This document shows, piece after piece, positions 4,474 to 63,712 of a stretch of 64,000 nt of DNA. Position numbers and translations under genes: made by a program. The DNA is taken from assembly GCA_003280965.1 (NCBI GenBank), contig QCDI01000011.1:1-64000 (forward strand), given 5' to 3'. Source of the DNA: Prochlorococcus sp. AG-355-B18. Lineage in GTDB: Bacteria; Cyanobacteriota; Cyanobacteriia; PCC-6307; Cyanobiaceae. How positions within the stretch are numbered: position 1 is the first letter of the stretch; the number at the start of each line of letters is the position of its first letter. Below the pieces are notes generated by a model, which saw only the letters and a program-made list of their open reading frames with translations, searched no databases and was not told where the DNA came from.

Positions 4474-5274
4474 TTGTTAAATAAAAACATTTATTTAATA
4501 CTTATTATTTCACTTGTTTTTACTATATCTTTTTGGATTGGATTCAATGTTAATTTGCTACCTGCTGAAGCAAGTATTAATGCGCCAATTTACGATGAAC
4601 TATTTAAAATTCTTTTCATTATAGGTTTAATTATTTTTATAGGAATGACAATAGCAGTTATTTATAGTTTATTTAAGTTTAGGAAAAGAAATGATCAGAT
4701 AGGCGACGGTATAGCTTTAGAGGGAAATTTAAGCCTAGAAATTGTATGGACAATTATCCCTTCAATAATAGTTTTATTAATAGGTTTATATAGTTACAAC
4801 ATTTACGACAGAATGGGAGGAATGAGAGAACTAAATCATAACCACGAAATGATGAGTTCAAATTCTGAAAAAATATGGGCAGGAATTAGTCAAACTTCTG
4901 ATAATCAAGTATCAAATAATTTATCAATTGAAGTTTCGGCTATGCAATTTGCATTTCTATTCAATTATCCCAAAGGTAATTTTATATCTGGAGAATTACA
5001 TGTTCCTGTAGATCAAAAAGTATCCATGAAAATGGAATCTAAAGATGTCATTCATGCTTTTTGGGTACCTGAGTTCAGAATTAAACAGGACATTATTCCT
5101 GGACAACCAACTGTTCTAAATTTTACTCCGACAAAAGTAGGAAAATATCCAATAATTTGTGCAGAATTGTGTGGCCCATATCATGGGGGAATGAGAGCCT
5201 CGATAATTGTTGAAGAAGAATCTGATTACAACGATTGGTTTAACAAAAATAAAAAAACAGAGGTAAATTTATGA
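4474..5274 (+). CDS. coxB: Cytochrome c oxidase subunit II
   Basis: CuA ligands in DVIH...CAELCGPYHGGM. Confidence 0.97.
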   Translation: MLNKNIYLILIISLVFTISFWIGFNVNLLPAEASINAPIYDELFKILFIIGLIIFIGMTIAVIYSLFKFRKRNDQIGDGIALEGNLSLEIVWTIIPSIIVLLIGLYSYNIYDRMGGMRELNHNHEMMSSNSEKIWAGISQTSDNQVSNNLSIEVSAMQFAFLFNYPKGNFISGELHVPVDQKVSMKMESKDVIHAFWVPEFRIKQDIIPGQPTVLNFTPTKVGKYPIICAELCGPYHGGMRASIIVEEESDYNDWFNKNKKTEVNL

Positions 5275-6896
5275 CAATATCAATTGATCCACAAAAAACC
5301 AATAATGAAAGTCTCCAACCTAAAGGCTGGCTTAGATACTTTAGTTTTAGTCTTGATCATAAAGTAATTGGAATACAATATTTGGTTTGCGGTTTTCTTT
5401 TCTATTTAATAGGAGGAACCTTAGCTAGCGCTATAAGAATTGAACTAGCTAGTCCAATGTCTGACTTTATGCCAAGAGATGTATATAACCAAGTTTTAAC
5501 CTTACATGGAACAATAATGATATTCCTTTGGATAGTGCCTGTAGTTAACGGTGCTTTTGGAAATTATTTAATTCCATTTTATGTGGGTGCAAGAGATATG
5601 GCATTCCCAAGATTAAATGCCGTAGCTTTTTGGTTAATTCCACCATCGGGTTTGATGCTGGTAACGAGCTATTTTGTTGAAGGTGCTGCTCAGGCTGGAT
5701 GGACAGCTTATCCACCATTGAGCATAACTACTCCTCAATCGGGACAAATAATTTGGATTCTAAGCGTTCTATTACTTGGAGGCAGTTCTATCTTTGGTGG
5801 AATTAACTTTATCGCCACCATTATCAAATTAAGAAGGCCAGGATTAAAACTCATGCAATTGCCAATGTATTGTTGGGCAATGCTTGGGACGAGTCTACTA
5901 GTTGTTTTATCAACTCCTGTTTTGGCTGGTACTTTAATTCTACTTAGCTTTGATATCATCGCCAATACAGGGTTTTTCAATCCTGTTTTAGGTGGCAATG
6001 TTGTAGTTTATCAGCATTTATTTTGGTTTTATTCTCATCCAGCTGTTTACATTATGGTGCTACCTGCCTTTGGTTTAGTTAGTGAAATACTTCCTGTACA
6101 TGCTAGAAAACCACTTTTTGGATATACAACGATGGTTTTTTCAATAATGGGAATAGTTGTTTTAGGTTTAGTTGTTTGGGCGCATCATATGTTTACTAGT
6201 GGAACCCCTCCTTGGATGAGATTGTTCTTTACTATCGCTACAGCATTTATTGCTGTTCCAACGGGGATAAAATTTTTTAATTGGGTTGCAACATTATGGG
6301 GGGGGAAAATTTCCATTAACAGTGCGATGTTATTCTCTTGTGGATTTATTATCAATTTTGTTTTTGGAGGAATCACAGGAGTTGCTCTGGCCCAGGTTCC
6401 TTTTGATATTCACGTACATGATACTTATTTCGTTGTAGCCCATTTTCATTACATAGTTTATGGCGGTACTGTTTTTATTATTTTCTCATCGATATATCAT
6501 TGGTTCCCCAAAGTAACTGGGAAAATGCTAGGTGAAAAATTGGGAATTTTTCATTTTATAATTACCTTTATTGGATTTAACTTGTGCTTTGCTCCTCAAC
6601 ATTGGCTAGGTTTAAACGGTATGCCAAGAAGAGTTGCAGAATATGATCCTCAATTTCAGCTAGTTAATCAAATTAGTAGTCTAGGGGCTCTCTTGATGGC
6701 AATAAGTACAATCCCTTTTTTAATTAATGTCTTCCTTAGTGTGAGAAACGGTAAAAATTCTGGAGACAACCCTTGGAATGCTCTTACACCTGAATGGTTA
6801 ACATCTTCTCCTCCTCCAGTTGAAAATTGGGAAGGAGAAGCACCATTAGTTGAAGAACCTTATGGTTATGGTAAACAGTTTTCTGAACAAAAATAA
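5271..6896 (+). CDS. coxA: Cytochrome c oxidase subunit I
   Basis: WFYSHPAVY, WAHHMF and HFHY heme/CuB motifs. Confidence 0.98.
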   Translation: MTISIDPQKTNNESLQPKGWLRYFSFSLDHKVIGIQYLVCGFLFYLIGGTLASAIRIELASPMSDFMPRDVYNQVLTLHGTIMIFLWIVPVVNGAFGNYLIPFYVGARDMAFPRLNAVAFWLIPPSGLMLVTSYFVEGAAQAGWTAYPPLSITTPQSGQIIWILSVLLLGGSSIFGGINFIATIIKLRRPGLKLMQLPMYCWAMLGTSLLVVLSTPVLAGTLILLSFDIIANTGFFNPVLGGNVVVYQHLFWFYSHPAVYIMVLPAFGLVSEILPVHARKPLFGYTTMVFSIMGIVVLGLVVWAHHMFTSGTPPWMRLFFTIATAFIAVPTGIKFFNWVATLWGGKISINSAMLFSCGFIINFVFGGITGVALAQVPFDIHVHDTYFVVAHFHYIVYGGTVFIIFSSIYHWFPKVTGKMLGEKLGIFHFIITFIGFNLCFAPQHWLGLNGMPRRVAEYDPQFQLVNQISSLGALLMAISTIPFLINVFLSVRNGKNSGDNPWNALTPEWLTSSPPPVENWEGEAPLVEEPYGYGKQFSEQK

Positions 6897-12689: not shown

Positions 12690-13418
12690 TCAATTTTTAT
12701 TCATAGTTTTATTTTTTGAGTCTAAGATACGTTCAATCTTTTCTATTTCAAAATTTACCTCAGAATTACTCAATATGGAACTCAACTCTTCAGTGGGATC
12801 TTTTGGATCTACATCTTTTAAAATGAATATTATTTTGTAAGATTGAAGCTCAATTTTTCTTTTTTTTGAAAGATTCTTAATTTTTTTATTTTTTTTATCA
12901 TCAAATTTTTTGTTTTCTTTTTCTAAATTTATATCTTTTTTATTTTCTGGAACATTTTTTGGCTTCACTACTTTTTTAATTTTTTTATTTTTTTTATTTT
13001 TTTTATCATCAAATTTTTTGTTTTCTTTTTCTAAATTTATATCTTTTTTATTTTCTGGAACATTTTTTGGCTTCACTACTTTTTTAATTTTTTTATTTTT
13101 TTTATTTTTTTTATCATCAAATTTTTTGTTTTCTTTTTCTAAATTTATATCTTTTTTATTTTCTGGAACATTTTTTGGCTTCACTACTTTTTTAATTTTT
13201 TTATTTTTTTTATTTTTTTTATCATCAAATTTTTTGTTTTCTTTTTCTAAATTTATATCTTTTTTATTTAATAAGTTATTTTGTAAATCTTCATTTTTGC
13301 TTGTTTTTTCTAAATCATTAAAACTACTTTCAAGAAAATTTCCAATCCTCCCTCCAGAGCATGATTGCAAGAAAATTAAAAAAATTAATAAAAAAAATTC
13401 TTTTTTTTTTAAAATCAT
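12690..13418 (-). CDS. Hypothetical lipoprotein with Lys-rich 36-aa repeats
   Basis: Hydrophobic signal ending LQSC; repeated KKDINLEKENKKFDDKKNKKNKKIKKVVKPKNVPEN; non-repetitive C-terminal YKIIFILKDVDPKDP domain. Confidence 0.75.
   Translation of the reverse strand: MILKKKEFFLLIFLIFLQSCSGGRIGNFLESSFNDLEKTSKNEDLQNNLLNKKDINLEKENKKFDDKKNKKNKKIKKVVKPKNVPENKKDINLEKENKKFDDKKNKKNKKIKKVVKPKNVPENKKDINLEKENKKFDDKKNKKNKKIKKVVKPKNVPENKKDINLEKENKKFDDKKNKKIKNLSKKRKIELQSYKIIFILKDVDPKDPTEELSSILSNSEVNFEIEKIERILDSKNKTMNKN
12881..13269. repeat. 108-bp tandem repeat, ~3.6 copies
   Basis: TTCTAAATTTATATC recurs at 12921, 13029, 13137 and 13245; the copies appear identical. Confidence 0.95.
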
Positions 13419-60766: not shown

Positions 60767-60838
<72 letters not shown>

Positions 60839-60946
60839 TACCCAAAAGCCGAACTTCATTTAGGGAGTGGTTAATCTCTTTAATCCTTTGATATGAATTT
60901 ACTTCTGATCTTTCAGAAGCAAAATAGTGCGATAACTAGTGCATTA

Positions 60947-60991
60947 TTGACAATTAATCTAAAATAAGGGGCAATTAGCTCCCTTTTTATG
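60947..60991 (+). repeat. Promoter/leader repeat element, copy 1
   Basis: TTGACAATTAATCTAAAATAAGGGGCAATTAGCTCCCTTTTTATG; the final ATG is the start at 60989. Confidence 0.93.
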
Positions 60992-61978
60992 AAGAGATTT
61001 TTAATTCCTTTATTAGCTGCTCTTGCAATTCCAACTACCGTTAATGCAAATGTAGATCCCAAAATCACCGAGATTTGCATGAAAGCAACTGATTTCAAAG
61101 GTTGTGTGGAAAGTATGTCTGGTCAGCAGAATAATAATGTATCAATTAAATCAGGATATGACGAAGCTCTAATAGCTTTTGAAAAGGGAGATTCTTTAAA
61201 AGCAATTAAATCAATAAATTCTTATATTAAAAAGAATCCTAATTCTAAAGAAGGATATTTATTAAGAGCATTTATTAATACGTATGATTTATCAGAGTTT
61301 GATAAAGCCTTAGAAGATGTAGATAAAGCGATTGAGATAGATCAAAGTTATGCAATTGCTTACGCTTTAAAAGCAGATATTTTTTATTTTGATATTGGAG
61401 GCAGTGCATCTCAAACTAAAAAGATGCTAAATAAGGCTTTTGAAATTTCTCCTGATAATCCCTTCGTAAACTTTGTTAAAGGAGATTTCTATTACGATGA
61501 TTCTTTTGTTCTTCTTGATAAAGATAAAAAAGAATTGGCTATTAAATCCGCTGAAAAAGCATTGATCCATTTTGAAAAAGTAGTTGAAAATTATAAAAAT
61601 AATAAGGATTTGATAATTAAAAGAATTTATCCTCTTGGGATTACTTACGCTGCCACAGCCAGATTGGGTGAAGCAAAATTTGAACTTTATTTCATGTATA
61701 AGGACATTAAGGATAGAAAAACTGCCAAAACATATTTAGAAGAAGCCCTATCTCACTACACAAATGCTATTTCAATGGCTCCGTCACAAGAAAAGGCTGA
61801 AGAAATTGAGTTAGATAGAGATTTTGATTTAATAACTCCGGCAGATTTATATACTGAAAGAGGTAATATTTATAGTTGGATGAATAATAAGGTAAGGAAG
61901 GCCTGCAGTGATTGGAAGGTTGCCAAAGGATATGGAGATAAAGATGCACAGAAGAACTACAGAGAATTTAGATGTTGA
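60989..61978 (+). CDS. Secreted TPR-like repeat protein
   Basis: Signal peptide MKRFLIPLLAALAIPTTVNA; helical repeats such as YLLRA...KALEDVDKAIEID and LYTERG...ACSDW. Confidence 0.8.
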   Translation: MKRFLIPLLAALAIPTTVNANVDPKITEICMKATDFKGCVESMSGQQNNNVSIKSGYDEALIAFEKGDSLKAIKSINSYIKKNPNSKEGYLLRAFINTYDLSEFDKALEDVDKAIEIDQSYAIAYALKADIFYFDIGGSASQTKKMLNKAFEISPDNPFVNFVKGDFYYDDSFVLLDKDKKELAIKSAEKALIHFEKVVENYKNNKDLIIKRIYPLGITYAATARLGEAKFELYFMYKDIKDRKTAKTYLEEALSHYTNAISMAPSQEKAEEIELDRDFDLITPADLYTERGNIYSWMNNKVRKACSDWKVAKGYGDKDAQKNYREFRC

Positions 61979-61996
61979 ATTAATTAACAAAAATAA

Positions 61997-62023
61997 TTGA
62001 AATGCTTACTACCTGGACCGCTT
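61997..62023 (+). repeat. Degenerate MKRLLL signal-peptide stub
   Basis: TTGAAATGCTTACTACCTGGACCGCTT is 23/27 identical to 62495-62521. Confidence 0.8.
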
Positions 62024-62033
62024 TAGTTAGTAA

Positions 62034-62078
62034 TTGACAGTCGATCTACAATAAGGGTAATTAGCTCCTTTTTTTATG
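62034..62078 (+). repeat. Promoter/leader repeat element, copy 2
   Basis: TTGACAGTCGATCTACAATAAGGGTAATTAGCTCCTTTTTTTATG; the final ATG is the start at 62076. Confidence 0.93.
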
Positions 62079-62498
62079 GGAAATTATACAAATACCATTA
62101 ATTGGTTATTTGGTAGAGCTAGAGATTTTTTTGGTCCTGAACCAGGCACCTTAGTACCATTAAATATTTTGGCGGCTTTTTTTGCTCATGAACACTCCGA
62201 TGCTTCAATGAGGATATTGCATGGATATACTTCAATTGGATTAATAATTGGGATTTTTAGTACATTCAGTATTCTTGTGAATATTCGTTCAAAATTAAAG
62301 AGGATACGCGTTTTTGTTCCTCTTCTCATAATAAATATATGGGCATTTTATACAAATACATGGGTAGCCATAAATGGTATGGGGATCCCGTATGGGAAAC
62401 AATTCCATATATTTTTAGCAGTTTTAATAATATTTAATTATTCTATTTTTCGTAAATATACCAATTTAAAAGAAACTAGTGACCTAATAATTAAATGA
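62076..62498 (+). CDS. Hypothetical membrane protein (~3 TM)
   Basis: 140-aa ORF with three hydrophobic segments, starting at the repeat element's ATG. Confidence 0.7.
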   Translation: MGNYTNTINWLFGRARDFFGPEPGTLVPLNILAAFFAHEHSDASMRILHGYTSIGLIIGIFSTFSILVNIRSKLKRIRVFVPLLIINIWAFYTNTWVAINGMGIPYGKQFHIFLAVLIIFNYSIFRKYTNLKETSDLIIK

Positions 62499-62527
62499 AA
62501 CGCTTACTACTTGCACCGCTTGATTAA
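62495..62527 (+). pseudogene. MKRLLLAPLD* signal-peptide stub
   Basis: ATG overlaps the upstream TGA; its TAA overlaps the next ATG at 62527. Confidence 0.65.
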
Positions 62528-62784
62528 TGGCTAAGCCTCACTGGTTGATTAATTCTAAAAGAACAGAAGTGAAAAGATTTATAAAAAATGATAAGAGCAT
62601 TGAGGGAGTCTTCGAGTATATGTTTGTAGATACCGGAAAAATAGTTGGCGTATTTGGTATAGAACCACCCGTAATGACAACAACTGTCTCTCTAGATATA
62701 GATTTAGCGAGAGAAATTTATGAAAGATTACTTTCTCAGGGTTGAAGGAAAACTGAAGAAGTTTGCAAAAAAAAAGAGGGGTAA
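62527..62784 (+). pseudogene. DUF1651-like protein with a premature TGA near the C-terminus
   Basis: WLINSKRTEVKRF...AREIYERLLSQG*RKTEEV; the TGA at 62743 sits where GWRK is expected. Confidence 0.6.
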
Positions 62785-62803
62785 AGCTGCACCAAAGCCC
62801 CTC
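62767..62803 (-). terminator. Rho-independent terminator on the minus strand
   Basis: Minus strand reads GAGGGGC-N14-ACCCCTC-T9. Confidence 0.7.
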
Positions 62804-62846
62804 AAATAAAAGCACTGCGTAAACATAGTATTAACCTTTTGACTGA

Positions 62847-62892
62847 TTGACAGTTGATCTAAAATAAGGGGCAATTAGCTCCTTTTTTTATG
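62847..62892 (+). repeat. Promoter/leader repeat element, copy 3
   Basis: TTGACAGTTGATCTAAAATAAGGGGCAATTAGCTCCTTTTTTTATG; the final ATG is the start at 62890. Confidence 0.93.
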
Positions 62893-63333
62893 AGAAAAAA
62901 AATTCTTTATATATTCACAGTCTTAACTTTTTTATTAAACATATCAAACCAACCAACCTTTGCAGGACCATTTTCAGATGAGATGGCCAAATGTTTGGTG
63001 TCATCGACTAATGATAGAGATATAACTAAATTGGTAAAATAGATTTTTAGAGTTTATGGAGATCATCCAGAAGTTTCCTACATGGTTGATTTATCAGATA
63101 GAGAAAAAAAAGTTATTGATAAAGATGTTGCAGATTTAGTTACACGATTATTATCTGAAGATTGTTTAGATGAATCTAAAAAGGCTCAAAAATATGAGGG
63201 GGACATTGTTTTTTTTAATGCTTTTAAAATTTTAGGTCAAACAGCTGCACAAGGTTTTAATGGAAATCCTGAAGTAACAAGATCCATGAATAAATTTTCT
63301 GAGTTTCTTAATAATGAAAAATTAGATTTTTAA
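62890..63333 (+). pseudogene. Secreted hypothetical protein with one in-frame TAG
   Basis: MRKKILYIFTVLTFLLNISNQPTFAGPFSDEMAKCLVSST...KLVK*IFRVYGDHPEVSY continues in frame into the track ORF 63082-63333; TAG at 63040. Confidence 0.8.
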
Positions 63334-63366
63334 AGTAAACAAATTGTGAGGACAAATAGTCTACAA

Positions 63367-63507
63367 ATGAAACGATTATTACCTATTCTTGGAATATTTT
63401 TAATGACAACTGGTCTAGTCTCAAAGGAAGTGAGAGGAGATGAAGTATTGCAAAATATGTATGAAAATCTTACAACCGATTTATATGAAAAGACTTCAGG
63501 GAACTAA
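63367..63507 (+). pseudogene. Truncated signal-peptide ORF (46 aa, MKRLLPILGIFL...)
   Basis: Manual translation; its 3' end overlaps the integrase fragment in another frame. Confidence 0.55.
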
Positions 63508-63712
63508 TATTACTTGCTATTCATTCAGGCATTATTATGCCCTTCGTTGTCATTTAAAACTGATTGATTCTGGTAGTGCATCTTTAAGTATGGGACATTC
63601 AATAGAAGCTCATCATAGAAATTATCCATATTCAAAAGAATCCACAACAACTAATGCTTTTAAACTTGCAAGAGAGAGAGGATTGTTGCTTGAAAAAAAT
63701 TTCAATTTTTAA
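63485..63712 (+). pseudogene. Tyrosine recombinase/integrase C-terminal remnant
   Basis: YSFRHYYA...SMGHS...HHRNY matches the box II pattern with the catalytic Tyr; the N-terminal domains are absent. Confidence 0.8.

Follow-up and report, generated by a model that had tools for sequence, protein, structure and literature searches.

A 45–48 nt repeat as a candidate cassette joint in the genomic islands of Prochlorococcus

Introduction

Integrons consist of the integrase IntI, an attI site and cassettes bearing attC sites, with cassettes that lack promoters of their own and are transcribed from a single one near attI; attC itself is a single imperfect palindrome with RYYYAAC and GTTRRRY boxes. 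In Prochlorococcus, a repeat of about 48 nt, PRE1 (Prochlorococcus repeat element 1), is said to have been described by Coleman et al. in 2006 (Science 311:1768), reportedly at about ten per high-light genome and chiefly within islands, and we know of no function assigned to it. The PeSLs of the T4-type phages RB49 and phi1 place a promoter, a stem-loop terminator and a start codon before ORFans in variable regions, and according to Arbiol et al. (2010; PMC2839356) recombination between copies shuffles the cassettes, with circles shown; they are phage-borne, about 100 bp long, with -35/-10 boxes and a Shine-Dalgarno sequence, and with crossovers at scattered places. The tycheposon preprint (Hackl et al., bioRxiv 10.1101/2020.12.28.424599) lists tRNA-Thr(GGT) as one of seven target tRNAs, holds that most island material arose when imprecise excision took flanking DNA along, and assigns only 3.6% of island DNA to active elements.

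The element described here works like a PeSL or an integron joint, yet belongs to neither class. It resembles PeSLs in its stem-loop terminator (in silico), in preceding ORFans in variable regions, and in marking strain differences, but it is chromosomal, half the size, and exchanged inside a 16-bp invariant core. It also differs in having no standard -35/-10 pair (TAnnnT alone is conserved) and no Shine-Dalgarno sequence, and in being absent from T4-type phage records, apart from three viral contigs of uncertain integrity. As in integrons, the cassettes are tandem, co-oriented (143 of 151 neighbouring copies), mostly of one gene, variable in order, and often beside a tyrosine recombinase; in contrast, there is no IntI, each cassette brings its own predicted -10-like box, and the integrases, which stand 5' of the array, are many and different, or missing. 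The consensus lacks the attC boxes and its computed DNA folds show two small separate hairpins, and identity with attC is rejected. The array studied sits at a tycheposon target tRNA, and the integrase-like and excisionase-like pair found at the same junction in two related loci is missing from it; its gene-by-gene joints would be a finer layer inside tycheposon cargo. The element is probably PRE1, which it resembles in length (45–48 nt), copy number (7–25 per genome) and clustering in islands. Its function is apparently undescribed, although the sequence has probably been named: literature searches by topic and sequence found, among the listings, no paper describing it, a term search of partial texts of PMC2518516, PMC5069720 and PMC5607370 found no such motif, and the main text of the tycheposon preprint (10.1101/2020.12.28.424599) mentions neither PRE1, a promoter nor an integron.

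Organization of the tRNA-Thr island

The window is the whole 64,000-nt stretch analysed, from Prochlorococcus sp. AG-355-B18 (contig QCDI01000011.1, positions 1 to 64,000). Near its right end, three copies of the element (repeat family D11) lie on the same strand at 60947-60991, 62034-62078 and 62847-62892, each terminating in the ATG of an ORF, as a preliminary description of this DNA had reported; copy 2 differs from copies 1 and 3 by a one-base gap. Across the genome the 19-nt core gives 20 matches at two or fewer mismatches, against 0, 0 and 0 in three local shuffles, and 26 at three mismatches, against 2, 0 and 0. The roughly 25 element copies of AG-355-B18 are grouped near tRNA-Pro(TGG), tRNA-Met, tRNA-Ser(TGA) and tRNA-Thr(GGT), plus small contigs, and two lie on the same contig just past the window end. 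The island is arranged as follows.

60767..60838, + strand: tRNA-Thr(GGT), the island anchor; similarity to most relatives ends at or just past its 3' end
60839..60946, + strand: left flank of the array; both ends are common to loci L191 and L192
60947..60991, + strand: element copy 1; core 60947-60961 (three variant bases), -10-like box 60960-60965, hairpin 60966-60984, T-run, ATG
60989..61978, + strand: cassette gene 1, a 329-aa TPR protein with an MKR-type signal-peptide-like start
61997..62033, + strand: worn second joint motif (MKRLLL-type gene start), immediately 5' of copy 2
62034..62078, + strand: element copy 2; consensus core, TACAAT 62047-62052, weakened hairpin, T-run, ATG
62076..62498, + strand: cassette gene 2, a 140-aa hydrophobic protein with no Pfam or NCBIfam match
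62495..62527, + strand: second joint motif; relic of 10 codons from an MKRLLL-type start that overlaps the gene 2 stop
62527..62745, + strand: DUF1651 gene, 72 aa, with no element at its head
62847..62892, + strand: element copy 3; core, TAAAAT 62860-62865, hairpin 62866-62884, T-run, ATG
62890..63333, + strand: cassette gene 3, a 147-codon frame split by an in-frame stop at 63040-63042
63518..63679, + strand: relic of the C-terminal end of an L180-type tyrosine integrase (translation compared by eye)

The three downstream proteins are mutually unrelated (best cross E 2.3), so that the genes are non-homologous, as first described, and not paralogues. In a correction of that description, gene 3 is interrupted by its in-frame stop.

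In L191 and L192 about 2.2 kb follow position 60855 that are absent from the window. This module comprises a 453-aa integrase-like ORF (so called from its position and a C-terminal motif; it has no Pfam match), a 62-aa ORF and an 84-aa excisionase-like ORF, and the window island looks like a tycheposon-type element from which this module has been lost. A 46-nt piece of the tRNA-Thr 3' end lies on another contig (C16 2096-2141) and is a possible far attachment site.

Structure of the repeat

The element has a fixed order. The invariant core, (A)TTGACAGTCGATCTA, comes first; the TAnnnT box follows, then a hairpin resembling a terminator, its T-run, and the ATG. Its 5' edge is sharp, with a single A (0.94) preceding TTGACAGTCGATC and, to the left of that A, no more than a weak TGA/CGA/TAA bias. 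The repeat is as originally reported, with amendments: the genus consensus at core position 9 is C, not T, and the hairpin and T-run had been overlooked. The core is near-palindromic and lies at a fixed distance from the -10-like box. When only the first 13 bases were constrained, 228 copies had T at position 14 in 221, A at position 15 in 221 and T at position 19 in 210, with 16–18 variable, a pattern that supports a putative -10 box. In the window copies TA(A/C)AAT ends 23, 23 and 24 nt 5' of the ATG, TTGACA is 7 nt from that box, and no standard -35/-10 pair at 16–18 nt spacing occurs inside any of the three, in line with the preliminary description.

There are two distinct hairpins, type A in 315 and type B in 177 of 668 copies (176 are classed as other), with a T-run after each of the two types, and the stem pairs are each retained in 75–91% of distinct variants. 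In computed folds the copy 3 hairpin reaches -11.7 kcal/mol (z -3.24) and that of copy 2 is weak (z -0.25); an RNA begun in the hairpin loop has no stable fold (-1.2 kcal/mol). Matches anchored on the hairpin retain the core at one mismatch or fewer in 281 of 319 cases.

An ORF of at least 40 aa starts 12–38 nt past the box in 366 of the 668 copies, at 22–25 nt in 297 of these, and by the ORF rule used the other 302 have no ORF of 40 aa. Among 244 downstream families, 142 have an ORF at the head, 40 a convergent ORF ending near the hairpin, and 82 neither; the median cassette ORF is 94 aa. Two copies (C11 66883 and C1 96668) are followed by the same conserved stretch with no ATG, behind several upstream flanks, possibly a non-coding cassette or a long leader. 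Transcription starting 6–7 nt after the box would begin in the hairpin loop and give a predicted leader of 16–18 nt, a length that fits a MED4 start-site table (PMC5607370, Table S8): in the first of its 12 parts, 51 rows lie upstream of genes and 21 of these fall at 14–20 nt.

Genomic distribution

A search across Prochlorococcus matched 150 of 151 genus genomes and no control, with 7–25 copies of 45–48 nt per genome, clustered in islands. At least 138 collection loci carry the element, 132 from Prochlorococcus and six from Synechococcaceae single cells. An exact pattern was found in 10 of 11 genus genomes and one of 189 others, and none of 24 homologues of a cassette gene outside the genus had the element, which suggested restriction to one genus; this was overturned by a looser pattern that matched 12 genomes of 1.4–2.0 Mb from eight further genera (among 115), with one control match. 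From their size and base content we infer that these 12 are low-light Prochlorococcus.

Outside the genus the element comprises an 11-bp core (11–13 bp) and a hairpin, mostly with no -10 box. A GC stem and T-run follow 18 of 28 exact 11-mer copies, TAnnnT is in place in one of those 18, and several copies face convergent genes. In one form the core is a 16/18 palindrome with CG at its centre; in five other family genomes the palindromic form occurs at control level only. Flanks are swapped there as well: a single upstream flank leads into four different downstream sequences, and a ClpS-domain gene stands behind two different flanks. Because the related genera have core and hairpin with no -10 box, the core and terminator appear to be the older part, conserved across nine genera (the core) while the remainder diverged, and the promoter looks like a later addition. 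The element had been proposed as a portable expression module; the -10-like box is supported as a pattern and travels with the gene.

Two side observations concern other genera. In L417 (about 5186-6402), from a 2.3-Mb GC-richer genome, the one outside the genus that the exact pattern matched, a full copy joins a Prochlorococcus-type cassette tail to a 389-aa gene. In L642 and L662, from two further genera, a core-like word with no hairpin lies about 47 nt before a phosphoribulokinase-like (prk) gene, named from a reading of its N-terminus.

Three viral contigs carry full copies, two of them beside T4-like genes, and the other 24 of 28 viral stretches are without the rest of the element. Two longer patterns gave one and zero matches, and no phage record covers 80% of the element. 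Since the longer patterns match so rarely and the viral stretches are partial, the viral joins may be chimeras, and a phage origin is not supported. Element arrays adjoin T4-like uvsX/helicase genes or phoH at L026 1-2100, L030 500-600 and L014 41-59, by phage capture or as chimeras.

Combinatorial flanks and cargo

The 668 copies, de-duplicated on identical flanks, fall into 236 upstream and 244 downstream families in 509 combinations; the loci were picked mostly because they hold the element, and the pair counts are not independent. Of multi-member upstream families, 84 of 89 meet two or more downstream families, and the reverse holds for 83 of 89. Strain breakpoints are enriched at the element: among 2212 mapped in 66 long stretches of island, 219 fall inside the 0.87% of sequence around copies, an 11-fold enrichment. 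Of 76 genes headed by the element, 62 have a breakpoint at their front; of 508 other genes in the islands, 107 do. The element's proposed part as a recombination anchor is supported by these comparisons.

The window copies behave alike. The same left flank and copy 1 lead into different sequence in L066, L191 and L192, and cassette 1 stands behind other upstream flanks in L309, L312 and L501. Cassette 2 (62027-62517) recurs at 99% identity in L259 between different flanks; a relative of cassette 3 (82%, 62839-63382) has another upstream flank in L103, and the flank of copy 3 (62769-62886) leads to other DNA in L163 and L304. Elsewhere one pair of cassettes is found in either order, and 31 of 142 families are linked in a cycle that single-linkage clustering could inflate; together, the two orders and the cycle argue that deletion alone is insufficient. 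The element abuts stop codons, 142 of 568 copies lying within -4 to 14 nt of one, and some copies keep a constant upstream flank.

The cargo comprises 338 ORFs in 98 families, 61 of them singletons, and 25 of 60 scanned representatives (95 listed) have a Pfam match, including pilin-like, Mrr nuclease, sigma-factor-like, YadA-like, DUF3764, DUF3804 and DUF3303 proteins. A fixed joint carrying 98 protein families is a concrete, testable route to gene-by-gene island mosaics, and primers placed in the core would give access to the pool of cassettes in seawater. Sigma-70 domains, pilin-like N-methyl motifs, an Mrr-type nuclease and YadA-like repeats occur in genes headed by the element at L318 82-1161, L511 2944-3780, L303 319-1981, L099 2549-3487 and L500 3823-4947. 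Four metatranscriptome runs contain contigs with alternative joins at copies, contigs that reveal neither starts nor transcription.

Position of the exchange

Exchange had been placed at the ATG, which the flanking comparisons do not support. Just upstream of the core (positions -11 to -1), pairs sharing an upstream family are 0.84–0.99 identical, against 0.31–0.49 in unrelated pairs. Agreement in hairpin type is 0.79 between copies that share a downstream family, 0.39 between those that share an upstream family, 0.38 for unrelated and 0.89 for vertical pairs. Rare alleles at positions 16–19 are shared 51 times within downstream families (permutation mean 30.1, maximum 42) and 23 times within upstream families (permutation mean 19.7), and rare core variants are shared across the exchange at chance level only (7 of 52 and 10 of 80). 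By these comparisons the exchange sits in positions 0–15, the 16-bp core, with no finer placing, and since the -10 bases and the hairpin travel with the downstream gene, most exchanges fall in the 5' core. The triplet and rare-allele tests resolve no single cut position within it. The picture is not entirely clean: the variant core of copy 1 stays with its upstream flank.

Breaks at the T-run and ATG form a second, smaller class, with 34 breakpoints starting at positions 35–49. Among type-A copies, which share 45 bp of identity, hairpin variants still track the gene (0.21 against 0.07, background 0.05), more biased than plain homology would predict, although the triplet test gave about 0.5 inside same-type hairpins. 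Head-to-head fusions of two copies occur in L124 270-325 and L103 2501-2588, where the joins lie in the hairpin loop and at the ATG. None of 13 candidate inversions is joined at the core.

Proposed recombination between short repeats

The comparisons above establish the repeat, its anatomy, its combinatorial flanks and the position of exchange. To account for them we favour, with confidence about evenly balanced, a PeSL-like standard cassette joint in Prochlorococcus islands that is shuffled by short-homology recombination. A cassette would be the stretch from one core to the next. Recombination would likely take place between short identical copies, inside the 16-bp core; a crossover between two cores would delete or circularise the cassette, and a second would insert it at any other core, including one in another island or tycheposon. 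The near-invariance of the core may reflect binding by a protein or a restriction of exchange to matching copies. Within the genus, transcription would begin in the hairpin loop, and the new RNA, lacking the 5' arm, would escape the terminator that halts upstream read-through. The element thus likely gives each swapped gene its own predicted transcription stop and start signals, which suggests, in the genus, a compact insulator in which one hairpin would halt read-through and hold the next start site.

A second joint motif behaves much as the element does. It is the start of an MKRLLL-type signal-peptide gene, set flush against stop codons, and occurs at 62495-62527, 61997-62033 and 63367-63400 in the window and at C1 101181 and 101601 and C18 1914-3671 in the genome. 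It holds 82 of 2212 breakpoints in 0.31% of the sequence, an approximately 12-fold enrichment like that of the element; a breakpoint lies at the front of 20 of 26 of its genes, and a relic of it stands 35–42 nt upstream of 85 of the 668 element copies. That this non-palindromic motif, which has no symmetry, recombines is an argument for ready recombination between short repeats in the islands.

Short homology is favoured by this equally enriched motif, by the fusions at the loop and ATG, by the class of breaks at positions 35–49, and by the genome's enzyme content: it has no match to IntI (TIGR02249; the genome is 99% complete) or to a Y1 (HUH) transposase (PF01797), and XerD was not found, although three resolvase-family genes are present. 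The lack of a Y1 transposase also led us to reject REP or IS200-IS605 ends. Against short homology, RecA needs a minimum of about 23–27 bp in E. coli, for which a core of 16 bp (11–13 bp in other genera) is short. The conservation of the core across nine genera while the rest diverged, the weak hairpin of copy 2 and the 302 of 668 copies with no ORF also count against this explanation.

Associated integrases

The core may instead be the site of a specific recombinase, in an integron-like cassette system of new build. We regard this, the main rival, as possible but doubtful, and give it that much weight since the exchange zone is short, invariant and old. Candidate enzymes are the tycheposon tyrosine integrases, a 389-aa tyrosine recombinase on contig C2 and a small serine recombinase. 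Confinement of exchange to positions 0–15, with rare core variants crossing it at chance only, is what a specific site would give, and a family with no standard hairpin still has six upstream flanks in six copies. In this genome two different tyrosine integrase genes are each followed by a copy, at 3 and 7 nt past their stops; with three integrase or integrase-like queries, and clusters chosen by protein, the core was within 15 nt of the integrase stop at 40 of 88 loci and in 10 of 26 clusters, two loci being left out for incomplete frames. The core also outlasts the loss of the -10 T and the hairpin, as behind a 468-aa integrase in L404 and L408-L414, and the 11-bp core of eight other genera has one palindromic form and swapped flanks.

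Other results oppose a specific recombinase. Each of the three queries matched only 31–53 of 251 genus genomes, so that no single enzyme tracks an element present in 150 of 151, and 16 of the 26 clusters are without the core, for which reason a dedicated integrase is rejected; the core is also absent from all 28 integrase loci that were scored in other genera, one locus there lacking a complete frame. No single cut position and no inverting join at the core were seen, and the second motif recombines with no symmetry. That no enzyme tracks the element and that the second motif behaves alike decided our choice of short homology. A dif or pdif site, in which XerC and XerD arms flank a 6-bp spacer for the host's XerCD, was considered and rejected: one arm resembles a XerD arm, but the crossover would then fall in the hairpin, contrary to the mapped exchange, and the genome has no XerD. 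Tentatively, Prochlorococcus may have its own integron-like system, with an ancient palindromic attachment core extending from small-genome low-light to high-light lineages and cut by a tycheposon or core-genome recombinase; if true, hundreds of self-expressing, self-insulated one-gene cassettes would be shuffled between islands, elements and cells.

Regulatory and mobile-element alternatives

A shared promoter or operator (a regulon box plus terminator) with no role in exchange, at which breakpoints pile up as deletions trim spacers to the first functional base, would fit the near-palindromic core and its fixed spacing to the -10-like box, the core's retention in hairpin-anchored matches (281 of 319), the core-like word before prk in two other genera, and the constant upstream flank at some copies. 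We find it improbable: one upstream flank and core lead to different genes, in 84 of 89 families and at window copy 1, cassette orders are reversed, and 17 of 18 hairpin-bearing copies outside the genus have no -10 box, several facing convergent genes. Least probable of all, and given very little credence, is a reading in which the element inserts itself between stop and start codons, either as a MITE- or REP-like mobile unit that is non-autonomous or as a promoter of phage origin, as its abutting stops, its position behind many unrelated integrases and the three viral contigs with full copies might suggest, but neither terminal inverted repeats nor target duplications are evident in the alignments, there is no Y1 transposase and no phage record covering 80% of it, 24 of 28 viral stretches are partial, and the longer patterns gave one and zero matches. 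Taken with these weighings, the interpretation in the preliminary description is partly supported, and short-homology shuffling of cassette joints is the reading we retain.

Other features of the window

Searches of the window for known RNA families found tRNAs only, and one cobalamin riboswitch lies elsewhere, among 11 related loci. Tandem repeats of 108 nt and 45 nt occupy window positions 12756-13377 and 1-225, and are probably coding low-complexity sequence.
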